Of a stretch of DNA of 64,000 nucleotides, positions 6,296 through 43,008 are shown one piece after another; position 1 is the stretch's first letter, and each line of letters begins with the position of its first letter. Origin of the DNA: a virus (lineage: Duplodnaviria; Caudoviricetes). Made by a program: the position numbers and the translations under genes. The DNA lies in IMG/VR virus record IMGVR_UViG_3300021399_000099, positions 96,001-160,000 of that record. One strand, given 5' to 3'. The notes under the pieces are model-generated. The model had not been told where the DNA came from. It searched no databases and saw only the letters and a list, made by a program, of their open reading frames with translations.

Positions 6296-8431
6296 ATGCC
6301 TCAAAATATTAAGATAAACAATGTCCGTAGCTTAGATGCCAAAATCCGCCTTGATGAGTATTATGACTTCATGCTCTATAAGGGAGAGGCTTATGGTGCC
6401 GATACGAGTGATGAGTGTCTTGTAGCTGATTTTAGTAAGTTTGACATAGACGAGGCCGGCAAGCTGCATTCCCTTGTGTCGTGGTCAGGTGCTTCCAATG
6501 AGGGCGTCGAAATGAATGACATAGGTTTTACGGGCATTGACAACGGTTTTATCAAATATCGCAAGGATATGATATCAAACCAGGACTTTATGAACATACT
6601 GACCGGTTCGACATACGACATATCTTCCGCGGATACCAGGTTTTTCCTCTCACCGATAACCGGAAATACCCTTGACTACAAGTACCCTATGAGTGCTGTG
6701 ACAAACGACGAGGGTAATGTTGAATATCTTTCATTTAACGGTGGTTTCTACCAGGGCTTCTACAAACTCTTCGGTTTTGATTATCAAACACTTCCAGTAG
6801 GTCTTGGCTATGGCTGGACGCTTAACTTCAAACTCAGGCCCAGATGTGACTACGAAACGGTTCCTGGGACAATAAATTACAAGCACCCTGAAAACGAGGG
6901 GATGTTCTTCTATATGGGTACCAGGGCGGAAAACAAGTTCTGGGAGTATTATCCTAACAGCTCAGCACTTATGGAAGAGTTCAGGGTCGTTGATGCTGAC
7001 AGCGAAGGATATATGAGTAATGAGTGTGGTGAAGGTGAGATTTACGATATCTATACAAATCACGTCGCAGAAAGTGAGTGGTTGCAAGATGAACTCCCAG
7101 AAGAGCCGGAACCCGGATATTTCATTGACGGTTACGCTGCCAGTGCAATAACTCCGGATTGCCCTTGTATTCAAGACCTTATGAAAAAGGATTGTAATTA
7201 CTTCCCGCTTGAATATTTCCAGGATGATTATTTCTATTTTAGTGATGCAAGGATTCCAAATCCGTACAAGTATGACGGAAGCTATGTAAAACAAACCGTA
7301 TCATATCAGGAAGTAGTACAAGAAGTAAAGAAAAGTGGGTGTGGATGTTCTCAGGCTAGCGTTATAAAGAAAACAATTACAAAGACTTATAATGTTCCTA
7401 AGACATCGAAGTGTGGCTGCCTCCCAATTGAAGAAAACAATTATGCCGAGGTTTGTAAGACGTGTGAAGACTACTTTGCCGATGCCTACTACAATGATAT
7501 GTGTGTCGATAGCCCGAAAGCAATCGAGCTCGACTATGTGATGGAAGACATAAAAATTGACAAGACCGGCTCAGACATCACTGATTCAATCGGCCACCTT
7601 TTCGCAAGGACCGGCTATTACGAAATCACGACCGACAACAAGTTCCTCTTCTTTAACCGGACAAAGACGGGTTTCACCACCTGCAACTGGACTGAGGGTT
7701 CGCTTGTGACTTTTACCGGCAGGACAAACTGGAGCAACGCCAACTATTTCCTTCTTATGAACAGGACCTGCACCGGCTTTACGACATCAACTATTGAAAA
7801 ATACAACGAGGCCCACGAAAAGCCTTATGACATCTATAAAGACATTAAGAACAACGCATTTGGATTAAGGATTACCAAGGGCGGGGCCATAGGCTATCGT
7901 TACGGTGTCCTTGACTGTGAAACATCAGCCAGCAACCATTACTCTGTCATCGAAGAATATAGCAAGGACGGAATGGTGAAGTGCAACGAATGGAACGACA
8001 TCACAGTAAAGATTGCGGTTCTTAACCCGTACTATTCACAGATTCAGACGTCATATAAGCTTAACGGTCTTCTCAGTGGGGTTACGATATGTAACAATAC
8101 CGGAGTTACCGGGTCTCACAGAATTAAAATATATGTGTATGTGAATGGTTACCTCAAACTTGTTTCAAAGGAACTGCCGGAGTTTGCATTCAGGGAACTC
8201 AACGACGTTTATCAAAAACAGGAGGGCGTCCCATTCAACATTTCACTTGGTGGTGGAACACAGGGGCTTATGGAGACAATCGGTCCGGATTATATGAATT
8301 CGACCAAATATGTCCTACCGCTTGAACGCGATTTTGGTGGTTCGTTTAACGGTGATATAAAATCATTTAAAATGTATTCCTGTCCGCTCGATTATTCCAC
8401 AATCAAAGACTATTTATCTAAAAATAACTAA
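6296..8431 (+). CDS. Probable virion structural protein; C-terminus resembles LamG/ConA beta-sandwich, Cys-rich middle
   Basis: YVNG...ISLGG...FNGDIKSFKMY..PL; upstream ACTATTTAT motif; first gene of the plus-strand structural block. Confidence 0.5.
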   Translation: MPQNIKINNVRSLDAKIRLDEYYDFMLYKGEAYGADTSDECLVADFSKFDIDEAGKLHSLVSWSGASNEGVEMNDIGFTGIDNGFIKYRKDMISNQDFMNILTGSTYDISSADTRFFLSPITGNTLDYKYPMSAVTNDEGNVEYLSFNGGFYQGFYKLFGFDYQTLPVGLGYGWTLNFKLRPRCDYETVPGTINYKHPENEGMFFYMGTRAENKFWEYYPNSSALMEEFRVVDADSEGYMSNECGEGEIYDIYTNHVAESEWLQDELPEEPEPGYFIDGYAASAITPDCPCIQDLMKKDCNYFPLEYFQDDYFYFSDARIPNPYKYDGSYVKQTVSYQEVVQEVKKSGCGCSQASVIKKTITKTYNVPKTSKCGCLPIEENNYAEVCKTCEDYFADAYYNDMCVDSPKAIELDYVMEDIKIDKTGSDITDSIGHLFARTGYYEITTDNKFLFFNRTKTGFTTCNWTEGSLVTFTGRTNWSNANYFLLMNRTCTGFTTSTIEKYNEAHEKPYDIYKDIKNNAFGLRITKGGAIGYRYGVLDCETSASNHYSVIEEYSKDGMVKCNEWNDITVKIAVLNPYYSQIQTSYKLNGLLSGVTICNNTGVTGSHRIKIYVYVNGYLKLVSKELPEFAFRELNDVYQKQEGVPFNISLGGGTQGLMETIGPDYMNSTKYVLPLERDFGGSFNGDIKSFKMYSCPLDYSTIKDYLSKNN

Positions 8432-8449
8432 ACGAGAAATATTATAAAA

Positions 8450-10699
8450 ATGGCTGAAATAGTACCTAACAAAGTGCCTTGCAGTAAGAAATCTACTCCG
8501 ACTCCGACACCGGAACCTACGCCTGTTGCCCTATGCGACTTGACTGGCATTAAATATTTTAAACTGCATAGCGACATTTCCGGCGACTACACAAAGAACT
8601 GTGGCCTGCTTGGTAATGAAATCGACGAAAACTTCTATTTCCTCCGCAGTATGGATATCAAATCTGCCTACACAATTGACGAGTCAGGCAGAAAAATACT
8701 TGTGCTTGAAAGAGTCAATTGTAACAGGGACATCAAGGTTGATATTACCGATGATGATGCTTATCAGTTCAGGCTTGAAGACGGCTACATGTACATTCTT
8801 TTCCCTGATGGGCATGAGCAGAAACTTGGAAGATTCCTTGTGGAGGGCGATAACGTACATATTGTTACCGAAGCTTCATTGCAGGGTGACGGTTCGTACG
8901 GAAAGCCCATCGGCATCGACCTTGCATACCGCACCGGAACATATATGCCGGCTGATTTCTACGCTGACCTCACTTGCACGGCTGCTACACTTGATTCCCT
9001 CCCTCCTATCGGTCACGGTCACGCTGTCGTCACAAAGGAGAACGTGAGTCGTTTCGGGGCTCTTTATACTTGGGACCAGGCGGACAAACTTGACAAGGCT
9101 CTTGATAAGGAAGGACACGGCTGGAGGCTCCCTAGCAAGGAAGACTGGGCTGTACTACTTAACTGGGCTGAGGAAAAGGACGAAAACAGAAACCACGACA
9201 CCAATAAGTCCGGTAACTTCGGTTGTATCGCCGGTAACCGCTTGAAATCAACAGAATACTGGATGGTTGAAAGTCCGGCCACTGACCCTGTTGATGATTT
9301 TGGTTTCACAATTTACCCTGTTGGCGTATGCCCTGAGAATTACAATGCAAGAGAACCCAAGGAATACGGCTTCACGGGACTTTACAAGACTACATCATTC
9401 TGGACTTCAAGCTCAGCCGAAACCGGTGAGCACTACGTCCGCACCTTCTCATATGCCCACGACGATGTTGCTCAATTTACCGAAAGCAAGAAAAAGAGAC
9501 TAAGCATTCGTCTTGTAAGGGACGTTGATGCTGACTTCGACATTGACGGCTACGCTGACATTCTTGGTAACCATGTGCCTGTCGTTATCACTTCTGACGG
9601 AAAACAGTTATGGACCAGCATAAACGTAAGCATTAAAAATTATGATGGTTACAACCAGAACGAAGTTACAATACCGGAAGAATGGAATGACATTGAAACC
9701 GATATCAACACTGTCGGTTACTTCACAACTGGGGTAACAACCGGAGGTGTATTATATTATGATTTTGAACACGTCTATGATATATATGACCTTCCATCGT
9801 ACATTGACCCGGAAAGTATTGAAGAGTACGATTCGTTTGATGATGTACCTGAACCAACAACCGCATCACCGGAGTATGTAGCTGTAAAATATATCATCCA
9901 TCTCGATATGGTCACCGAAGCAAAGTTCTACTTCAATGCTTGGGACGGAAACGAGTGGCACAAGAAACTAATCCGTGAAGGTGAGTCTGTTGTTTTACTC
10001 CAGGAAGATTTTGAAACCGGTTGTGATACCGCAGCTACTCCTTATGTGACCAGCGCGAATACAAATCATGAATGGAGACTGTTCGTAAATCCTCAGACCG
10101 GACTTGACGAGCTCATTGATACGGCAGATGCTCTCAAGCGTGAATTTGACGAAGAGTTCAAGAAGATTGAAAGAGATATCTCTGGCCTTACTGAAGATGT
10201 AACGACACTAAGTGGTTTCGTTGGTGATATGTACGACGAGATGCAGAGTGGTTTTACCAGTGCATTCACTGCAATTGCGGAACTCCAAGAAGAATTGGAT
10301 GACGAGATTTCTGCCCGTACCATTGCCGATGAAGAACTCTGGGAGGCCATTGAGGCACTTGATGTTGCATTGAGTGCAGAAACAGCTGAAAGGATTGCTG
10401 CTGATGAAGAACTCTGGGATGCCCTTAGTGCAGAAACCGCCGAGAGAATTGCCGCCGACGAATATCTCCAAGAACAGATTGATGAACTTAAGGACAGAAG
10501 TATCGAAGCTTTGGACGATTCAATCATAGTCGAAATTTCTGGAAACACAACTTCAATTGGTGTTCAGATTTCCGAAGCAGAAAAGCAACTTAAACTCAGT
10601 GATGGCACCGAAGTTGAATACTATGATTCAGCCGGTCACCCAATCTACATACCTAAGGGTCTTTACCTTGATATGGATTTCGGGGAGTTCGAAGACTAA
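8450..10699 (+). CDS. Structural protein with FISUMP (Fibrobacter major paralogous, C-type-lectin fold) domain and C-terminal coiled-coil repeats
   Basis: LYTW..A...GWRLPSKEDW...GF.IYPVG...FWTSS...LSIRLVRD; ETAERIAADEEL repeats. Confidence 0.7.
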   Translation: MAEIVPNKVPCSKKSTPTPTPEPTPVALCDLTGIKYFKLHSDISGDYTKNCGLLGNEIDENFYFLRSMDIKSAYTIDESGRKILVLERVNCNRDIKVDITDDDAYQFRLEDGYMYILFPDGHEQKLGRFLVEGDNVHIVTEASLQGDGSYGKPIGIDLAYRTGTYMPADFYADLTCTAATLDSLPPIGHGHAVVTKENVSRFGALYTWDQADKLDKALDKEGHGWRLPSKEDWAVLLNWAEEKDENRNHDTNKSGNFGCIAGNRLKSTEYWMVESPATDPVDDFGFTIYPVGVCPENYNAREPKEYGFTGLYKTTSFWTSSSAETGEHYVRTFSYAHDDVAQFTESKKKRLSIRLVRDVDADFDIDGYADILGNHVPVVITSDGKQLWTSINVSIKNYDGYNQNEVTIPEEWNDIETDINTVGYFTTGVTTGGVLYYDFEHVYDIYDLPSYIDPESIEEYDSFDDVPEPTTASPEYVAVKYIIHLDMVTEAKFYFNAWDGNEWHKKLIREGESVVLLQEDFETGCDTAATPYVTSANTNHEWRLFVNPQTGLDELIDTADALKREFDEEFKKIERDISGLTEDVTTLSGFVGDMYDEMQSGFTSAFTAIAELQEELDDEISARTIADEELWEAIEALDVALSAETAERIAADEELWDALSAETAERIAADEYLQEQIDELKDRSIEALDDSIIVEISGNTTSIGVQISEAEKQLKLSDGTEVEYYDSAGHPIYIPKGLYLDMDFGEFED

Positions 10700-32894: not shown

Positions 32895-33101
32895 TTAGCG
32901 GTAAAGCTCCCAGTCGTCCGCAGTTACGTCGTCCAGGGAGAAACACTTGTCGGTAAAGCAAAAAGACGCATACTTACCGGCAATATCTGTCATTCCCCAG
33001 ACCTTATCACCGTTTGACATAATATATACGCCATCATTCCAAGACGTACGCCTGACCTTCTTCCCGTAAATCAGTGGCTGAATAATCTCTTCAAAAGTCA
33101 T
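32895..33101 (-). CDS. DUF2829 / Tad2-like (Thoeris anti-defence sponge) protein
   Basis: MTFEE....L..GKKVRR.SW....YI ... DV.ADDWE, the terminal signatures of DUF2829. Confidence 0.65.
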   Translation of the reverse strand: MTFEEIIQPLIYGKKVRRTSWNDGVYIMSNGDKVWGMTDIAGKYASFCFTDKCFSLDDVTADDWELYR

Positions 33102-33534: not shown

Positions 33535-33568
33535 AAAAAACCCCGGAAATGTCATTTTTTCCGGGGTC
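33535..33568 (-). terminator. Intrinsic terminator ending the NAD cluster transcript
   Basis: accccggaaa / tttccggggt plus T-tract. Confidence 0.75.
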
Positions 33569-33575
33569 TTTCCCT

Positions 33576-33818
33576 TCAGTGCGTGGCCTTATATGCGATG
33601 TATCTCACAAACCAACCGAAATTACTGTCCTTAACTCGGTTGAAAAGGTAGATGCAAAGGAATACTGGCCAACAGATTACCTGCCAGAAAGACTCAATAG
33701 TGGGAAACAGATTGACCGACTTAGCAGACATACCGAACATCAGCCCGGTATATGCATAAAACCAAATGATTAAAAAAACTGCAGTCATATATCTAAACAT
33801 TTTTAAAGTGCTGAACAA
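33576..33818 (-). CDS. Small membrane protein
   Basis: Hydrophobic; overlaps nadE end. Confidence 0.5.
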   Translation of the reverse strand: MFSTLKMFRYMTAVFLIIWFYAYTGLMFGMSAKSVNLFPTIESFWQVICWPVFLCIYLFNRVKDSNFGWFVRYIAYKATH

Positions 33819-34561
33819 CCACCCTTTGGAACAAACATCTGGCCGAGCCCCATCTTGAATTTCGTTTTCTGGTGCATAGATTCGATTGCTTCATCAACCT
33901 TCTTATCGCCACTTGTTCCTTTTACAAGATAAGTGTCAATGGCAGCGTAACTGAAACCCCACTTGGCGAATTTCTCATCATCAGGTGCGGAATTTGGAAG
34001 CCCGTCATCTGGAATCTTATCAACCCATTCAGCAGGAAGACCAAGAGCATAACCAACTCCCTTAACCTGGCGGACCGTAAGATTACCAATGGGTTCTACG
34101 TCGCTGGCTCCATCACCATAACGAGTGAAATACCCTACATAGTTCTCGCTGGCATTGCATGTACCAATCACACGACCGTTATTGGACTGGGAAATAGCAT
34201 AGAGGACGGTCATTCTAAGCCTCGGGGGAATATTCTGCTCGGTCTGTTTGCTCATATGTCCCGGAAAAACCGTCTTAATCTCATCAGTAAGACTCCCGAT
34301 AGGGAACTCAAGAAACTTGATACCAAGATATTCAGCAATCTTGTCAGCATCGTTAAGTCCTTGCCCAGTGTCCGGAATACCAACGCCAATAACCCTATCT
34401 TTACCAAGGGCTTCCACACAAAGAGCTGCCACGATGGTGCTATCCTTACCGCCAGAAAGTCCGATTACGGCATTGCAATCTGGACCGTTCTTTTCAAACC
34501 AGTCCTTAATCCACTGAACCAGTTCGTTTTTCAAACCATTAAATCTTTCCGTCATAACCAT
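33803..34561 (-). CDS. nadE: NH3-dependent NAD+ synthetase
   Basis: GLSGGKDS PP-loop, NI.PRLRM..LY, GTCNASE.YVGYFT.YGDG; no glutaminase domain. Confidence 0.93.
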   Translation of the reverse strand: MVMTERFNGLKNELVQWIKDWFEKNGPDCNAVIGLSGGKDSTIVAALCVEALGKDRVIGVGIPDTGQGLNDADKIAEYLGIKFLEFPIGSLTDEIKTVFPGHMSKQTEQNIPPRLRMTVLYAISQSNNGRVIGTCNASENYVGYFTRYGDGASDVEPIGNLTVRQVKGVGYALGLPAEWVDKIPDDGLPNSAPDDEKFAKWGFSYAAIDTYLVKGTSGDKKVDEAIESMHQKTKFKMGLGQMFVPKGGCSAL

Positions 34562-34808
34562 AACGATTTTTAGTGATATAATCCTTCATAATAACGGCAT
34601 GAACCGTCAATGACAGTTTAAATAAACTCCCAATGCACTCTTCTGGCAACTTATACCCTTCCTTTAAATAAACAACGTTATCTATTAAGACTGAATCATA
34701 TAAGTCCAAAAAGTCTTCCTTTTGACAAATATCGGGGAATCCTACGCATTTCTGGTATAAAGCCTCCCGGTATTTTTCCGGGAGGTCTGTCATTGGCTTC
34801 TGTTCCAT
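34539..34808 (-). CDS. hypothetical protein
   Basis: ORF overlapping nadE start. Confidence 0.55.
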   Translation of the reverse strand: MEQKPMTDLPEKYREALYQKCVGFPDICQKEDFLDLYDSVLIDNVVYLKEGYKLPEECIGSLFKLSLTVHAVIMKDYITKNRYGYDGKI

Positions 34809-34838: not shown

Positions 34839-35747
34839 TTATAAACTTTTTACTTTGTTCCACTTTCTTTCTAAAAAATCGACATCATCACAAAAAGTTG
34901 CAATTTTCTTAATGTCATCTCTATTACCGATGACTAAAGCGGCCGTTCCTTTTTTTGTTATTTTTGTTGTTACTGAGGATACGCCATAGTCTCTTTTTAA
35001 AATTTCGGCAAAAAAATCAAGGTTTCCTTTCCACGAACTATGAAGTTCAATTTTAAGTTGTGGATAACCTTTTGATAACCATATGCAACCGTCTCCATCT
35101 ACAAATCCTATGAAAAAATAAACAAAATCATTTTGAAAAATCTCTAACTTTGGAGGGAAGTAGGTTTTTGCGGTTTCTTCCATACAAAGAGTTTCCCTCC
35201 AAGATTCAATCCTTGGTTTGTCATTCCCTTGTATCTTTACAAAGCCTTTATTATCTTCCTTTACTGTGACTGATAATCGTTTTGCTATTTTTTCAAGGTG
35301 TGCTCTATCAACATTTTTCAATGATATTATCAGCGTATTAGTTTTTGAAAGGTGCCCATCGGCCATAATAAATCCCCACCAATATAGACTTTCTTTTGTT
35401 AGTGCATTCAAATCTAAAAAAGACAAATCACATTTCCTACTTCGGTCTATTTTTGCCCGATATCCAAGCCAATGCGCGTGTAGTTCTATTTTTTGGTAAG
35501 TTCTCCCAGGAAACGCTTTCAGTAAGTCTTCCATGGAGTATGTTTCCCAGGCTTCTTTCAACTTTGCATTTTCTTCGGCGGTCCAACGGTCATAGTGATT
35601 TGACTTTATATGGAGAGCATCTATTTTAGCCTTTATCTGTTTTCTTGTTTTTCCCGGAAGGAGTTCAATACATTTGTAAATCCCTCCTTCCGGAAAATTT
35701 TCATAAAGAATCTGTTTTTCTTCGTCTGTCCAAGTTCTTTTACCCAT
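34839..35747 (-). mobile_element. Free-standing LAGLIDADG homing endonuclease with two N-terminal Myb/HTH-like repeats
   Basis: YWWGFIMADGHL and FFIGFVDGDGCI motifs; WT.EE...L repeats; visibly more AT-rich than flanks. Confidence 0.8.
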
Positions 35748-35802
35748 GTTATATAGTGCTTTAATATAAATATATAACATTTAGTAAAAAAATCAAGGCA
35801 TA

Positions 35803-37353
35803 TTAAAACTTTCCGTCATTAAGGCGATTTCTAATATCGGCAAGACTCTCTTCTTTTATCATTTTACCGTCTTTGAAAACTGTTTCCATAAGGGTGTTCT
35901 GCATTGATTCTTCCCAAGTTAAACCGTCCTTATAGGTGATTTTCTTGTTCCACTTATCTCTCCAAAACACGGCACAGCATCCCTTCTGGGACTTTTTGAA
36001 ATTACCGCCTCCGGCTTCCCTATCAGTTTTAGGGTCCTTATAGATTGGAATCTTCGTAACAACGCCATTCTTGTCTGTGAATTCAGCGTAAATCGGCTTA
36101 ATGGCCATCGAAAAAGTGTCCCTCGTGAAAGGTTTGAGCATTCCATCTTCCTCAATACAATGCATGGAGAAGGAGCCCACACCCAGAGAAACATTGTTTG
36201 CGGCGAAACCGTTTTCCTCAAGAATTCGGTAAATCTCCTCGGCTCTCTGCACTGTAATAGAATCGCCATAAAGGGCCTTTACGTGCGGATTAAGGACCTT
36301 GTAACCCTTGGAGTTAGTTGTACCTCCAAAAATCTTCCAGAGTTCAAATACGGTCTCCGTAACCACCTTTACACAGTCGCCAGAGTCACCACGGACAAGC
36401 AGGCATCCGTTATGGGCAAGGATTTCGTCTTTAAGCGTAGGAAGAATGTTCTTTACCACATTCCAGTAATCATACGAATCGGAGACGCAGCTGAACGAAG
36501 TGTTGGGGTAAAGTTCGGTAAGGGCACGCTTGATAAAGATACGCTCGCGGTGAGGGTCAATGTCGGCGTACTCGTAATCCGGGTTATCGACCGTATCCTT
36601 TGCAGAATTGGAGCACATAACGAAATGCTCGGTGGAGACGGCGCCAAAGGCAACCTCTTCCTTTTCACAGTCGCAGTTGTAATAGTGCTCGAGATAGGGT
36701 ACGACGGGAACAGTGGCGCTATTCACGAAGGACAGACACCATGCTGAACCGGCCTTAAGTGCCGCGTCAAGGCCCTGGTCGCCACGGAAATCAAAGTTAC
36801 CGAGGGCGCGACGGCGAGGTACATTATCATCGCATGTCTTGTCATACCAATAATTTACAATCTCACGGTAAGTATGACCTACGGTAGCACAGACCATAGG
36901 ATACCACATCTCAGCGGAAATCAACGACTCCAGTGCCTGACCGAGCCAAGCGAAATCCGGATGGGTGTTGGTGATACCGAAAATGGGGCAATGAATTGGA
37001 ACGATGGTACCTTCCGGCAGGGAAACTACCTCAATGGGGAGATAGCCGAGACGATGAAGGTTTCTAATCTTTCCATAGTCACAAAGGTCTTTTCCAAGGG
37101 TATTATCCATAACCCTGGCATATTCGGCGACCACTTCTTCCTCAGTCTTTTTGAAGAAGTTCTCGTTGAAGTAGTCGATGAGCCAGGTCTTGCAGAATGC
37201 CTGGAGACCAAAATTAACCACTCCGTCCCAGCGATTAACGCGGGAACTTCTGGGGGTGAAATACGATACGCTCTTCGTCATACCCGGGTCAAGCATTTCG
37301 CTATGAACTGCCTTGTAGAAATCTTTGAGTAGTAATGCGTTACAATTAAACAT
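35803..37353 (-). CDS. NAMPT-family phosphoribosyl/ADP-ribosyl transferase (Namat-like), predicted nicotinate-preferring
   Basis: DFYK..H, NFDFRG, TEH (phospho-His), VSDSYD, LVRGDSG, LYGDSIT, GVGS, KDPKTD, KKSQKG. Confidence 0.9.
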   Translation of the reverse strand: MFNCNALLLKDFYKAVHSEMLDPGMTKSVSYFTPRSSRVNRWDGVVNFGLQAFCKTWLIDYFNENFFKKTEEEVVAEYARVMDNTLGKDLCDYGKIRNLHRLGYLPIEVVSLPEGTIVPIHCPIFGITNTHPDFAWLGQALESLISAEMWYPMVCATVGHTYREIVNYWYDKTCDDNVPRRRALGNFDFRGDQGLDAALKAGSAWCLSFVNSATVPVVPYLEHYYNCDCEKEEVAFGAVSTEHFVMCSNSAKDTVDNPDYEYADIDPHRERIFIKRALTELYPNTSFSCVSDSYDYWNVVKNILPTLKDEILAHNGCLLVRGDSGDCVKVVTETVFELWKIFGGTTNSKGYKVLNPHVKALYGDSITVQRAEEIYRILEENGFAANNVSLGVGSFSMHCIEEDGMLKPFTRDTFSMAIKPIYAEFTDKNGVVTKIPIYKDPKTDREAGGGNFKKSQKGCCAVFWRDKWNKKITYKDGLTWEESMQNTLMETVFKDGKMIKEESLADIRNRLNDGKF

Positions 37354-37387: not shown

Positions 37388-37407
37388 TGCAAATACCGTA
37401 CCAAACT
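37388..37407 (-). promoter_or_regulatory. sigma54-like motif upstream of the NAMPT-like gene (AGTTTGGTACGGTATTTGCA)
   Basis: -24/-12 spacing conserved. Confidence 0.7.
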
Positions 37408-37657
37408 AGAGCTCCTCGGTCTCAACATAGGTCGTTTTTACAATCTTTTCGATTTTAACGACGTTGGACTTGGCCCAGTAACCGGGTGACGGATGTCTTT
37501 CCTTGATATCTTGGAAACTTGGCATGTACCATTTGAAGTAGCCATTTTTCTTAATGGTATTCAGTTTCCGTTTTTCATTTGCACCAAGCTGAAGGGTGTG
37601 GAAGTCGTCGCCGGTAATCAGGTAGTACTCCTGAGTTTCTTTCGTAATATTTGCCAT
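37406..37657 (-). CDS. hypothetical protein within NAD cluster
   Basis: ORF flanked by two sigma54-like motifs. Confidence 0.65.
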   Translation of the reverse strand: MANITKETQEYYLITGDDFHTLQLGANEKRKLNTIKKNGYFKWYMPSFQDIKERHPSPGYWAKSNVVKIEKIVKTTYVETEEL

Positions 37658-37688: not shown

Positions 37689-37708
37689 TACAAATATCGT
37701 GCCAAACT
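37689..37708 (-). promoter_or_regulatory. sigma54-like motif (AGTTTGGCACGATATTTGTA)
   Basis: -24/-12 spacing conserved. Confidence 0.7.
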
Positions 37709-38549
37709 ATGCATTCAGCACGATAACTTTTTCATTATACCCGGTATAGAGGCTGTCCGTGGTATAAATGTAATCCACAGTACCGTTCTCGAGGCGTTTA
37801 AGCAGGGTTCCCTTCTCCGGGTCAAGCACACTGTTCTCCGTGTGGGTAGCATAAGCGTAGATATGTTCAAAGCCAAACTCCTTAAGCTTATCGGCGCTGT
37901 ATGCCAGGGTTCCACCGTAGGAAATAATGTCGTCAATCATAATGACGCTGCGACCAGAGCACTGGGAAGCATCAGGTTCATATCCTTCCGGTGTAGTTAT
38001 TCGGAGGCCTTTGATTTTCCCGGTCTCCCAATCACGAACCTTATGACCGATTAAGACATTTTTCTTGTTCGGGAAAAGGTCGCCGTAACGCTTGTAGGCA
38101 CCCTCGTCCGGGAAATAGAGATAATCATCGTTACCAAGGCCAATCCGTCTCACTGTATCGAGAATGAAATCCATAGGGCTCATAACCCATACGTTCTTGA
38201 TGAGTGCCGGGGTAACATTGGAGTGCGGGTCAAGTACATACACCCGATAAAACTCGAGGCTGTTGATTATGTCACAGAAGTATTTAAGTGTGAATACCTC
38301 GCTACTGTCCTTAATTCTGTCCATTCTGGCGTTGGGGACATAAAAGAGGTTAAGTACGAACAGCATATCCGGGTGAAGGCCCTTTAGATGCTTGGTAATA
38401 TAAATAAGGGTCAAAAGTTCCCCATCGTTCTCATAACGCCAAGTGATATGGTTGGCAGATGCAACGTTGAGGTAAAAATCTTGTTTCAGCAGCTGTGTTC
38501 CGTCCGGAAAGTGCTGAACTTCAACTTTTTGATTATTTACTAGAATCAT
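37707..38549 (-). CDS. Ribose-phosphate pyrophosphokinase-like protein (PRS family; possible ADPR-PP synthetase Adps)
   Basis: FPDG, PNARMDR, DPHS, FPDEGAYKRY, K.RDW.TG.I, DDIISYGGT, YATH. Confidence 0.88.
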   Translation of the reverse strand: MILVNNQKVEVQHFPDGTQLLKQDFYLNVASANHITWRYENDGELLTLIYITKHLKGLHPDMLFVLNLFYVPNARMDRIKDSSEVFTLKYFCDIINSLEFYRVYVLDPHSNVTPALIKNVWVMSPMDFILDTVRRIGLGNDDYLYFPDEGAYKRYGDLFPNKKNVLIGHKVRDWETGKIKGLRITTPEGYEPDASQCSGRSVIMIDDIISYGGTLAYSADKLKEFGFEHIYAYATHTENSVLDPEKGTLLKRLENGTVDYIYTTDSLYTGYNEKVIVLNA

Positions 38550-38752: not shown

Positions 38753-39304
38753 TTAGATAACGTCAATCTGGCACATCTGCATGGTCTTGCAGGCAGCGAA
38801 ATGGGTCTCAGGGGTTACACCGGCGCAGCAGTCCTCAACGACCTTGACAGTGGCCTTGTCATAGAACGCAGCCTTAACCATCAGAGCATTGGAAACCACA
38901 CAGATATCGGTACAGAAACCGACAAACTCAATGTCAAGGTTGGCCCAAAGAGAAACACGCTTGATTTCGTCAATGAGGTCAAAGGAGCCAAAGGTAGGTT
39001 TCTCTACACGAACAACATTGATATTACGAATCTTTGCGTCATCAAGGGCTGCCTGGACGTTGGCTTCAATGTTCCAACCGTCAGTACCCTTTACGCAATG
39101 CACAACGGGAAGCTTCTGCCCCTCGTTAGTCTGGAGATAATCTTCTTCGTGGGTGTCCATGGTGTAAAAGATTGCATCACCGTTGAACTCACGAATCTTT
39201 TTGACAATGTTTGGAACGTTCTTGATAGCCTTTTCGTTCCTGAGGGCGCCAGTAATAAAATCGTTCTGGCAGTCGATAACGACCAAAATTTTTCTTGTTT
39301 CCAT
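38753..39304 (-). CDS. pncA: Nicotinamidase (isochorismatase family)
   Basis: VIDCQNDF, DTH, HCVKGT.GW, EKPTFGS, GFCTDICV (Asp-Lys-Cys triad and metal ligands). Confidence 0.88.
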   Translation of the reverse strand: METRKILVVIDCQNDFITGALRNEKAIKNVPNIVKKIREFNGDAIFYTMDTHEEDYLQTNEGQKLPVVHCVKGTDGWNIEANVQAALDDAKIRNINVVRVEKPTFGSFDLIDEIKRVSLWANLDIEFVGFCTDICVVSNALMVKAAFYDKATVKVVEDCCAGVTPETHFAACKTMQMCQIDVI

Positions 39305-40584: not shown

Positions 40585-40897
40585 GTTCTTTTAAAATCAT
40601 TTCTCGTAATGTTGGGGTGTCCCTTACGATGTAGCAACCGTGATAGTTCCCCAGGTGAAACTTTGCGTGGTGCTCCGTTTCCAGTCTTTTAGCCACCGTT
40701 TCTAATAGCATCCTGTCGGACTGGCGTGTTCCATAATGGTCATAGGCATATATCTTGGTGCCCATCGGCTGTGTAAAAAACTCTTGTATCGTCCTGTCAG
40801 CCAATCTTGTTGTTTCCCCGGTCGCCCTGCTCAATAATTCTTGCAACTCTTCGTCTGTTTTACTTTTTAAGAAGTTGTCATAATATTCGCTGTTCAT
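40559..40897 (-). CDS. hypothetical protein
   Basis: ORF tiles operon. Confidence 0.65.
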   Translation of the reverse strand: MNSEYYDNFLKSKTDEELQELLSRATGETTRLADRTIQEFFTQPMGTKIYAYDHYGTRQSDRMLLETVAKRLETEHHAKFHLGNYHGCYIVRDTPTLREMILKELENRKDDE

Positions 40898-42009
40898 TAT
40901 GTTGTAAGGTCTTTATCACTTATAGCCACATCAAACGGTGCAAACAAATCACGTTCCAAGTCTTCAGTGGTCAAGTATCCACGCTCGACAAATTCGTCAC
41001 GCAGGGGGTTTGCCAGCTGAATGGACATCGGGTGGGCCTTACCGGTGGCTGCTATATCGCTACGGAGGCGGAAAAAGTGTATCCACGCGTCCTTGAAACC
41101 GCAGAGAACCAGTTCAGTCTTTGTAGATAGCGGGAGAACGCCCCTTGCCTGGTCCGGTATCCACGGCTTCTTTTCCTCTTCGGCAATCCCCTCTATATGG
41201 CTCCAATCGTTTGTAAGCCCATTGTATGCGTTTTCGGCAGAATTAAGTGCAATGAGCCATTGGTCAATCCTGTCATTTTTAGGCCTACCGCCGTACTTTA
41301 CGATTCGCATAGGGACTCGAGTCGGGGGGTCATCTTCCGTTGCTTTTTCAAAAAGTTCATTTCCCCCAACATCAACCCAGTCTCCGTCCCACCATATGAC
41401 ATTTTCTCCCTCGGCAAGCTTATCTTTTCCAATCCACGGCGGTATAACGAAACAACACTGGTTGCCATATTTCTTTCTGTTGTAATTCACATACCTGGTG
41501 CTTTCCTGGACCATTGACATCACCCTATGACGCAGGAAGTCTCGTCCAAGTCCAATATCGGTAATGAACTTCACGGTATAACGCTTCTCGTGGTATTCAG
41601 TTGGCTCACAGAGATACTTCAGGTCGTCAAGGCGGTTGTTCTCCACAAGGACACGATAGTTGGTGGTGATGTACCATTTAGAATTATAAAGTGCTCCTAT
41701 CTTGCTGTATTTATTGTTGCTGTAAAATCGTACGATGCTTTGGGTGGCTCCCCAATCTTTAAGTCCTGTCGGGTGTCCATTCTCATCAACATCTACTGGC
41801 GGCTCTTCAATACACAAATACACCGTCCCGAACTCCAGCACCGCACCGTGCCCTTCCTTCACCCTATTTTCTACAAACTTTCTGGCGGTCTCTCCACCTT
41901 TCACTTCACTCTTATAGGAGGTCTTGCCACAGCGTTCTATAATGTCATAGATACCCTGTAGTCCCGGCCCCTGTTCAATAATTTCGTAACTTGGTCTAAC
42001 TAATTTCAT
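40897..42009 (-). CDS. thyX: FAD-dependent thymidylate synthase
   Basis: IERCG..SYKSE, GH.AVLE, RHR..S..QESTRY, AR.VLP...KTEL, W.HFF.LR, AHP. Confidence 0.93.
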   Translation of the reverse strand: MKLVRPSYEIIEQGPGLQGIYDIIERCGKTSYKSEVKGGETARKFVENRVKEGHGAVLEFGTVYLCIEEPPVDVDENGHPTGLKDWGATQSIVRFYSNNKYSKIGALYNSKWYITTNYRVLVENNRLDDLKYLCEPTEYHEKRYTVKFITDIGLGRDFLRHRVMSMVQESTRYVNYNRKKYGNQCCFVIPPWIGKDKLAEGENVIWWDGDWVDVGGNELFEKATEDDPPTRVPMRIVKYGGRPKNDRIDQWLIALNSAENAYNGLTNDWSHIEGIAEEEKKPWIPDQARGVLPLSTKTELVLCGFKDAWIHFFRLRSDIAATGKAHPMSIQLANPLRDEFVERGYLTTEDLERDLFAPFDVAISDKDLTT

Positions 42010-42030
42010 GATACTATACTTTATAAATTA

Positions 42031-42059
42031 AAAGTACAAAAATTCCTGGACTTTGCCAA
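42031..42059 (-). promoter_or_regulatory. sigma70-like promoter TTGGCA-N17-TACTTT upstream of thyX
   Basis: Matches recurrent motif. Confidence 0.5.
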
Positions 42060-42078
42060 AAATCTTTGTACTTTCTTT

Positions 42079-43008
42079 TTACTTAAGGTTGTCAATCCCG
42101 TTTTCGGCGTACCATTCGCGGAATTTCTTGTATTCCTCCTCGCCTACTTTGTTGATGGCCACCTGCAAGTCGTTGTAATCGCAGTGCTTAATCTTGACGA
42201 TAATCCGCTTGCCGCGAGGGTCCTTGATAGGAACGACCGGTCTGGCTACAATGCCTTCCTCAAGATAGTCGGGGTTTGAAACATCCGGCACGAGGGTCTT
42301 AAATCCCTTCTTAACCATCTCTTCTGCCTCCTCAATGGTCATCTGGCCAATGTAGGGTGCAACTGTGAGACCAAGTTTCTCGGCATAGTCGTTCAGCATA
42401 TCAATGGGAACCCACCAACCCTGCACACAGATGTCGAAGATGGAGAAACGGTTCTTATCCTTGTCATAGTTGCCGCCAGACTGAATCTTCTTACCGAAGA
42501 ACTCACCATAGATATAAACGGGAACCTCTTCTACGTGGATAACGCCATACTGTGGGTGTTCTCTGTATTCGTTGATGGTGATGGGGTTCGGGTCAGGGTC
42601 ACCAGCAGAAGAATCATACAAAAGAATCTGGTTCTTATCATTCATTACAGGAGCAAACTTAGCACTCTCAGGCGGGAACAGCTCAGCAAGAATGGGCTTA
42701 ATCCTTTCAATCTCAGCATCAAGGAATGCCTTCTGCCCGGTACCTACGATGTCAGCATTGTCAGTCTTGCCACCAGGGAAACATTCTCCAGTGGAAGGGA
42801 AATAAACAATCTTACTATTGGTACCGTCTATTTTACTAAAACAATCAAACTTCAAACCCTTGATGTATTCCATAAAATCGTCAGAGTATTCATCGACAAT
42901 GATTTTATTCATAAACACCTTCCAGTCCTTGTTAGGAAGAGTGACCTTTCCAAGATTTTGATATCTTTTATACAAAGTGTTGATTTTTGTGTAAGTTTGT
43001 GTCTTCAT
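42079..43008 (-). CDS. RNA ligase (Rnl2-like nucleotidyltransferase)
   Basis: KIDGTN (motif I), YGEFFG, F.IFDI, EEGIVARP, VKIK. Confidence 0.8.
   Translation of the reverse strand: MKTQTYTKINTLYKRYQNLGKVTLPNKDWKVFMNKIIVDEYSDDFMEYIKGLKFDCFSKIDGTNSKIVYFPSTGECFPGGKTDNADIVGTGQKAFLDAEIERIKPILAELFPPESAKFAPVMNDKNQILLYDSSAGDPDPNPITINEYREHPQYGVIHVEEVPVYIYGEFFGKKIQSGGNYDKDKNRFSIFDICVQGWWVPIDMLNDYAEKLGLTVAPYIGQMTIEEAEEMVKKGFKTLVPDVSNPDYLEEGIVARPVVPIKDPRGKRIIVKIKHCDYNDLQVAINKVGEEEYKKFREWYAENGIDNLK

Follow-up and report, generated by a model that had tools for sequence, protein, structure and literature searches.

A Namat-lineage transferase of a large gut phage with a remodelled pyridine pocket and a candidate nicotinate-based route to NAD+

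Introduction

Bacteria widely defend themselves by depleting NAD+ (Thoeris, SIR2-HerA, DSR). Research on the phage counterpart, reconstitution of NAD+ by the pathways NARP1 to NARP3, is recent, and every route described so far has been noteworthy. In NARP1, the transferase Namat (from SPbetaL1 [PDB 9w5x/9w5w], Bas63, ICP1 and FADO) uses ADP-ribose pyrophosphate (ADPR-PP), and its partner is the ADP-ribose pyrophosphokinase Adps. The Adps of ICP1 has been validated biochemically and structurally (PMC13586617) and the FADO operon genetically (10.1101/2024.02.11.579819). More distant are the NAMPT/NadV enzymes (human, Xanthomonas, H. ducreyi NadV [9ke8] and the KVP40 NadV of NARP2), which share the fold, the catalytic His and the joining of a pyridine to an activated ribose with release of pyrophosphate (PPi). 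NAPRT/PncB (human NAPRT; bacterial TIGR01513 and TIGR01514) belongs to another branch of the type II phosphoribosyltransferase superfamily, and NARP3, a PnuC/NadR route, is unrelated to the genes described here.

Here we analyse P0001, a Namat/NAMPT-family transferase of 516 aa (35803–37353, minus strand; phrog_448, E 2.9e-152) encoded in a window of 64,000 nucleotides, bases 96001–160000 of the 216.9-kb IMG/VR virus record IMGVR_UViG_3300021399_000099 (61% complete according to CheckV). The source is a large gut phage of jumbo size with 40.7% G+C. At the position where Namat and NAMPT hold nicotinamide with an Asp, P0001 has Ala213, and its gene lies in one cassette with genes for a PncA-like nicotinamidase, a Prs-like protein and a single-domain NadE. 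From sequence comparison, we moderately favour the reading that P0001 is a nicotinate-type Namat within the NARP1 lineage, serving a four-enzyme route in which nicotinate and ADPR-PP would give deamido-NAD (NaAD) and then NAD+.

The transferase belongs to the Namat lineage and has Ala213 opposite Asp219

The initial annotation had called P0001 a NAMPT-family enzyme; the family was right, and within it the protein falls into the ADPR-PP-using Namat lineage rather than with classical NAMPT. It matches Namat 9w5x with 337 bits (E 1.4e-99) and mammalian/human NAMPT with ~126 bits (about 1e-36), and its AlphaFold2 (AF2) model (pLDDT 96.3) gives the same order, with Namat as the top Foldseek hit (TM 0.87/0.92) and nearer than NAMPT. 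By contrast, P0001 fails the curated PncB models (TIGR01513: 18.8 bits vs a cut-off of 297.4). Given its Namat lineage, the product would therefore more likely be deamido-NAD than nicotinate mononucleotide (NaMN).

In the HMMER alignment, P0001 residues 186–252 pair gaplessly with residues 188–254 of SPbetaL1 Namat (PDB 9w5x, titled 'Namat in complex with nicotinamide' according to Foldseek), which is the register of the gapless alignment to human NAMPT made earlier by eye. Codon GCC (36715–36717, minus strand) hence places Ala213 opposite Namat Asp215 and, via this residue, opposite human NAMPT Asp219, as had been proposed. The surrounding stretch (residues 185–215; 36709–36801, minus strand) also holds the pocket positions G185 (human H191), F187 (F193) and N211 (G217). 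A substitute acidic residue was looked for and not found at or beside the site, which reads N211-S212-A213-T214. Nor is Ala213 a sequencing quirk, because all 121 of 121 homologues at 72–97% identity share it.

The catalytic core is kept: D11 and the stacking Y13 (from the other protomer), F187, R190, His243 of the TEH motif and R321-G-D323-S-G are all in place, including the stacking Tyr/Phe, TEH His and RxDSG already recognized in the initial annotation. F187, Y13, R190, R321, D323 and H243, which are invariant across the family, are the equivalents of the Namat core, described as the stacking Phe189 and Tyr15', Arg192, Arg306, Asp308 and the catalytic His. In the subclade of P0001, the Asp that otherwise precedes the stacking Phe as a conserved residue (human D192) gives way to Asn, Ala or Ser (Asn186 in P0001) and a new Asp188 stands two residues on (36790–36798, minus strand), which looks like a paired swap.

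In the Namat crystal structure, Asp215—the equivalent of human Asp219—forms a hydrogen bond with nicotinamide, and D215A lowers NAD+ formation by SPbetaL1 Namat 8.1-fold (PMC12774641). Asp219 is said to define the specificity of NAMPT, with D219S switching substrate affinity and D219A losing activity (reviews PMC7096376 and PMC4919578, citing Khan 2006). In human NAPRT, Ser214 is the structural equivalent of Asp219 and helps to steer the enzyme to nicotinate, other determinants being needed too (PMC4442680); with NAPRT/PncB, P0001 would share both a small neutral residue (Ser or Ala) at this position and the proposed pyridine substrate. These data also speak to a reading that we hold very improbable, namely that P0001 is an ordinary nicotinamide-using Namat despite Ala213, with PncA and NadE working separately alongside it to support salvage by the host. 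Such an enzyme would agree with the intact catalytic core, with the roughly one eighth of activity that D215A Namat retains (PMC12774641) and with the finding that specificity in the family is not fixed by a single residue (PMC4442680). It agrees poorly with the listing of human D219A as a loss-of-activity mutant (PMC4919578), and both the pocket and the gene neighbourhood, described in the following, argue against it.

Pocket residues changed together in an Ala/Ser clade

We sampled the best 150 representatives of 50%-identity clusters, of which 145 could be scored at position 213: 36 have Ala, 17 Ser, 90 Asp and two Glu (53 Ala/Ser vs 92 Asp/Glu). In an unrooted tree of 72 full-length representatives, a single branch parts the Ala/Ser from the Asp/Glu proteins (SH-like approximate likelihood-ratio test [SH-aLRT] support 99). 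Asp is the residue of SPbetaL1, of ICP1 and of the more distant NAMPTs, so that Ala/Ser would most simply be the derived state.

When alignment columns were ranked by the least overlap between the 53 Ala/Ser and the 92 Asp/Glu representatives, the top columns were 213, 185, 240, 211, 237 and 238, corresponding to human D219, H191, A244, G217, S241 and V242. These columns line the nicotinamide pocket and tunnel. Within the Ala/Ser group, H191 is exchanged for Ser, Gly or Cys, G217 for Lys or Asn and S241 for Gly, and the A244 position is Ser in 51 of 53 representatives (Ala in 91 of the 92 Asp/Glu proteins). In P0001 the latter residue is Ser240 (codon at 36634–36636, minus strand), which changes together with 213 and aligns with Namat Ala242, itself counted among the nicotinamide-pocket residues (PMC12774641). 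H191, G217 and A244 are moreover human positions at which mutations block tunnel inhibitors and confer inhibitor resistance (PMC4919578, PMC7464552). With several pocket columns changed together, it is therefore the whole pyridine pocket that has been remodelled, and not one residue. For an enzyme that still used nicotinamide, the joint change and subsequent fixation of at least six pocket positions would be hard to account for.

The breadth of the change could also be read differently. Because the tunnel residues H191, G217, S241 and V242 are altered too, more than the amide contact is reshaped, and the pocket might accept a different pyridine or base, or nicotinate as well as nicotinamide, with the product being an NAD analogue or the role lying outside defence, for instance in a general recycling of ADP-ribose by gut Clostridia from which phages would have taken it over later. 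A chromosomal operon of Ruminococcus albus 8 with non-phage flanks (see below) is in line with such an origin. Yet PncA and NadE have defined substrates that fit nicotinate chemistry exactly, and no gene of the cassette points to another base, making this reading improbable.

Many of the homologues P0123–P0270 are long (575–1114 aa), with inserts of 60–600 aa, and HMMER reports two to five matched stretches for them. Inteins were considered as an explanation of the extra length, but in the eight long homologues scanned, the insert matched no intein or endonuclease family of Pfam. Rosetta-stone evidence in the form of PncA or Prs fused to the N-terminus was sought in the long homologues P0146 and P0163 and discarded, as neither carries such a domain.

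Linkage with PncA, a Prs-like gene and NadE

We collected 192 viral loci together with flanks of at most 10 kb per side (two Asp-type contigs were fetched twice) and scored the flanking open reading frames (ORFs) against profiles of the PncA, Prs-like and NadE proteins encoded in the window. Among the 98 Ala/Ser loci, 94 have PncA, 96 the Prs-like gene and 93 NadE, the loci that miss a partner lying mostly on short or truncated contigs; the corresponding figures for the 94 Asp/Glu loci are 0, 90 and 0. Classical NARP1 hence differs from the Ala/Ser type in its gene content as well. Four further Ala/Ser subclades from other collections have the same four Pfam families side by side, with NadE in first place in one of them. 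All 80 loci from bacterial genomes or metagenome-assembled genomes (MAGs) are of the Ala type, and PncA accompanies 71 and NadE 69 of them. Most carriers belong to Ruminococcus, Lachnospiraceae and Oscillospiraceae; cultured ones among them are R. albus 8, AR67 and KH2T6.

The co-occurrence of Asp-to-Ala homologues with pncA and nadE that had been put forward for checking is thus borne out by the viral loci. The linkage is clean. It goes back to one evolutionary event kept across a deep clade rather than to many independent switches, and since the switch happened once, the 98 loci are not independent trials—a point that weakens the linkage as support for our reading. What the linkage represents is a partnership retained across a clade that has diverged to ~40% identity, through moves between phages and bacteria and through reshuffling of gene order and spacing.

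The split is nevertheless perfect, PncA and NadE occurring in 0/94 Asp/Glu loci vs 94–96% of the Ala/Ser loci, and a nicotinamide-using transferase would see its own substrate destroyed by a phage nicotinamidase. Together, the Asp219 literature, the co-occurrence and the concerted pocket changes strongly support the proposed switch to nicotinate, and we consider it quite probable that nicotinate is the pyridine substrate of P0001.

Evidence on the donor

In Namat bound to NAD+, the adenine is sandwiched by Phe392, Arg40' and Asp400', and the R40A/F392G variant loses the ADPR-PP-dependent activity while keeping activity with phosphoribosyl pyrophosphate (PRPP) (PMC12774641). All three residues have counterparts in P0001, R38 (Arg40'), F395 (Phe392) and D412 (Asp400'), whereas the PRPP-using HdNadV has Glu at the Arg40 and Gln at the Phe392 position; NAMPT, too, is without the clamp Arg and Phe, and has Asp219 and uses PRPP. 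Viral loci of the Ala group invariably have Arg at position 38 (48 of 48), and those of the Ser group have Met.

The neighbouring Prs-like protein (280 aa; 37707–38549, minus strand; phrog_619, E 1e-61) is a probable Adps. It passes the cut-off of none of the curated Prs models (64 bits vs 113), has the length of ICP1 Adps and shares 34.7% identity with FADO Adps and 33.7% with ICP1 Adps. When five housekeeping Prs proteins serve to root the tree, it lies inside the phage Adps clade (SH-aLRT 100) as sister to the FADO Adps group (99), with ICP1 Adps outside. Adps proteins have a PRPS fold without the C-terminal alpha11–alpha12, and Lys185, Asp212/213, Arg87 and His121 are catalytic; the equivalents of these residues are kept in 83–84 of 84 Prs-like partners. 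Provided that the pyridine is nicotinate, these comparisons make ADPR-PP the rather more probable donor, with NaAD as the product.

Several features weigh against ADPR-PP. One is the adenine 'selectivity clamp helix' region (residues 393–412, GSF...TRD; 36118–36177, minus strand). Where Namat has GS-X-phi-X-phi-X-phi-TRD, P0001 reads GSFSMHC, then an insert of nine residues, predicted in the AF2 model to be a beta-hairpin, and then PFTRD, such that the Phe at signature position 3 is kept and the second and third aromatic positions are lost (M397, C399). Asp188 of the P0001 subclade falls on Namat Ser190, which contacts the mononucleotide phosphate, and Namat itself also takes PRPP in vitro (PMC12774641). 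The Prs-like protein has DDIISYGGT in its pyrophosphate (PP) loop, where ICP1 Adps has DDICDGAAS, as well as Lys for the adenine-contacting Phe92, Leu for Phe221 and Tyr for Phe223; the PP-loop and adenine-contact positions also vary among the partners of Asp-type loci.

The main competitor is a PRPP-based scheme. P0001 could be a nicotinate phosphoribosyltransferase of the NAMPT fold: the Prs-like protein would make PRPP, nicotinate and PRPP would yield NaMN, NadD of the host (occasionally of the phage) would convert this to NaAD, and NadE would finish, so that the phage would boost the Preiss-Handler pathway. The pocket and the linkage fit this scheme equally well, and PRPP is a possible donor for Namat as well as for NAMPT enzymes (PMC12774641; bioRxiv 10.1101/2024.02.11.579819). 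The degenerate clamp helix with its interruption also fits, and NadD is essential and occurs in all hosts. On the other hand, the Prs-like partner sits within the Adps clade, far from housekeeping Prs, and the Adps of SPbetaL1 did not act as a Prs (10.1101/2024.02.11.579819). Together with the gene census below, this renders the PRPP scheme possible but unlikely.

Adenylyltransferases and bacterial carriers

A route through NaMN calls for an adenylyltransferase, and phages that follow a PRPP route (NARP2) bring their own NMNAT. Phage NadV pairs with NMNAT and not with a Prs-like gene; the cassette of P0001 is without NMNAT. In genomes at least 90% complete, a cytidylyltransferase-like gene is present in 5 of 30 Ala/Ser phages and in 4 of 22 Asp-type phages, so that an adenylyltransferase-like gene is missing from 25 of the 30 near-complete cassette phages and is not enriched in them relative to Asp-type NARP1 phages. 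We therefore dropped the adenylyltransferase as a fifth cassette member as a rule—it is real in one Ser subgroup—and the cassette appears to supply every step but an adenylyltransferase.

Three observations pull in the opposite direction, towards NaMN. In one Ser subgroup, an archaeal-type NMNAT directly follows NadE (~200 bp) in 8 of 19 loci, and the clamp Arg is lost there too (Met38). In addition, one Ala-type phage has a NadD-like gene at a distance of ~8 kb from its cassette. Finally, 30 kb upstream of the window, the phage itself encodes a 415-aa ORF (G000:C1:65159-66406) with a weakly cytidylyltransferase-like C-terminal half (PF01467, 30 bits; 'cytidyltransferase' in phrogs); its similarity to NMNAT models is faint and confined to the HxGH region, and it could be a pathway-relevant adenylyltransferase. 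From the loss of the clamp Arg and the NMNAT and NadD-like genes, it follows that part of the clade may run through mononucleotides; the NMNAT-bearing Ser subgroup in particular may use PRPP and a mononucleotide intermediate. This subgroup is recognizable by the motifs SDFGMRG and DKTSTI and by the Met that replaces the adenine-clamp Arg.

Turning to the bacterial carriers, all five cassette-bearing genomes that we tested have a canonical PncB (540–580 bits) and a housekeeping Prs above cut-off, and four of five have a long NadE. A role of the cassette as a substitute for a missing PncB in bacteria was accordingly rejected. Since PncB and Prs are already at hand in these hosts, the cassette is no stand-in for Preiss-Handler salvage and a second PRPP route would be redundant, which again speaks against the PRPP scheme.

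In R. albus 8, a three-gene operon of PncA, the Prs-like gene and an Ala-type transferase is chromosomal (L260:6621-9521; Prs-like gene at 7169–7984, transferase at 8001–9521), with NadE and PncB elsewhere in the genome. Its flanks are of non-phage character and comprise DUF711, PHP, a sigma factor, an MFS transporter and GH2.

Proposed pathway

Under our preferred reading, a nicotinate-type Namat that uses ADPR-PP, the four cassette enzymes would act in sequence. Nicotinamide freed by host NADases would be converted to nicotinate by PncA, and ADP-ribose to ADPR-PP by the Adps-like enzyme. P0001, a Namat-lineage protein whose pyridine pocket would have been retuned from nicotinamide to nicotinate, would then join nicotinate and ADPR-PP directly into NaAD, and NadE would amidate the latter to NAD+.

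In its most far-reaching form, the proposal is that nicotinate + ADPR-PP -> deamido-NAD + PPi is a novel reaction of this clade. It would be the hallmark of a 'deamidated NARP1' with four genes (PncA, Adps, nicotinate ADP-ribose transferase and NadE), which gut phages commonly carry and which is located on the chromosome in Ruminococcus and Lachnospiraceae; this pathway would make NAD+ from the products of NADases with neither a mononucleotide nor an adenylyltransferase. For this fuller claim, we consider the balance to be even.

Cassette and genome setting

On the minus strand, the cassette runs from 39304 to 33803 in the order PncA, Prs-like gene, 83-aa ORF, transferase, LAGLIDADG gene, 89-aa ORF and NadE. 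The first gene encodes the PncA-like nicotinamidase (183 aa; 38753–39304, minus strand; Pfam Isochorismatase, E 3.7e-21). Aligned to solved nicotinamidase-type proteins, it shows the context of the Asp-Lys-Cys triad (IDxQNDF, a K before FG/YSAF, and CTDxCV) and a DxH...H metal motif; among its top PDB hits are nicotinamidases (1ilw/1im5, 3o90 and 3pl1), and it matches the curated E. coli-type PncA model weakly. The 83-aa ORF between the Prs-like gene and the transferase (37406–37657, minus strand) comes from the ORF list and has no Pfam match, which is also true of the 89-aa ORF further downstream (34539–34808, minus strand).

Between the transferase and NadE lies a free-standing LAGLIDADG homing endonuclease gene (34839–35780, minus strand; Pfam LAGLIDADG_3, E 4e-10; phrog_4645) that splits the two; in most relatives, NadE is the next gene or lies within about 1 kb. 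The last gene of the cassette encodes NadE, a single-domain NAD+ synthase of 252 aa (33803–34561, minus strand; Pfam NAD_synthase, E 2.5e-49) that scores 166 bits against TIGR00552 (cut-off 63.65). Some 230 bp past NadE follows a strong terminator-like hairpin of 15 pairs with a T run (33535–33572, minus strand).

A Tad2-like anti-Thoeris sponge gene (68 aa; 32895–33101, minus strand; PF11195, 34.4 bits vs a cut-off of 25) is located ~700 bp downstream of NadE, and two further loci (L196 and L197) likewise have a Tad2-like gene close to the cassette; this neighbour suggests a counter-defence neighbourhood. Upstream of the cassette (40897–43008, minus strand), we found genes for a ThyX-type thymidylate synthase (370 aa, with an extended N-terminus) and an RNA ligase (309 aa). 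RtcB and an RNA ligase stand just upstream of the cassette in locus L195 as well.

A megablast search of the cassette against GenBank phages gave no match. By protein search, the closest phage record is a single uncultured faecal phage (58%), and all cultured phages are at most 41% identical. A transferase copy with 97% identity occurs on the 3.3-kb contig CAMOVV010000216.1, which is binned with an uncultured Bacteroidales MAG and is a weak hint to the phage's host.

Discussion

Of the described systems, NARP1 comes closest to the locus analysed here: Namat is the best match of P0001 in sequence and structure, with the same catalytic core and the adenine-sandwich residues kept, and an Adps-family gene adjoins the transferase in a phage counter-defence setting. 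The differences lie in the pyridine pocket, with Ala for Asp215, Ser for Ala242 and changed equivalents of human H191, G217, S241 and V242, and in a clamp helix that has lost two aromatics and gained the nine-residue insert modelled as a hairpin. Enzymes of the NAMPT/NadV type are much more distant from P0001, and NAPRT/PncB differs in that it exists as a separate, true PncB in the cassette-bearing bacteria.

Gut 'NAD-jumbo phages' have previously been catalogued by annotation (Microbiome 2024, PMC11662467). They resemble our phage as large gut phages with NAD salvage genes that include pncA, NAMPT-annotated genes and nadE, but their clusters are pncB-nadD-nadE Preiss-Handler clusters with a true PncB and NadD. 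We found no mention of the Asp-to-Ala/Ser clade or of an ADPR-based deamidated route in the passages of that paper retrieved by a term search. The NARP1 preprint (10.1101/2024.02.11.579819) likewise holds no mention of PncA, NadE, nicotinamidase, NAD synthetase, nicotinate or nicotinic acid, and no such variant is described in the first two parts of the Results of either structural paper, on Namat (PMC12774641) and on Adps (PMC13586617). A literature search that combined NARP1 with terms for a deamidated route returned no paper.

If true, the pathway proposed here would comprise a new enzyme activity and give phages and gut Clostridia a fourth way from ADP-ribose to NAD+. It would also present a natural specificity switch in the NAMPT fold, at a residue long discussed for human NAMPT. 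With R. albus 8, AR67 and KH2T6, cultured carriers are available in which the idea can be tested directly. The accompanying simple sequence rule asks for Ala/Ser at the position of Asp219 and for Ser at that of Ala244, and by it thousands of 'nicotinamide phosphoribosyltransferases' from metagenomes would receive a new annotation.

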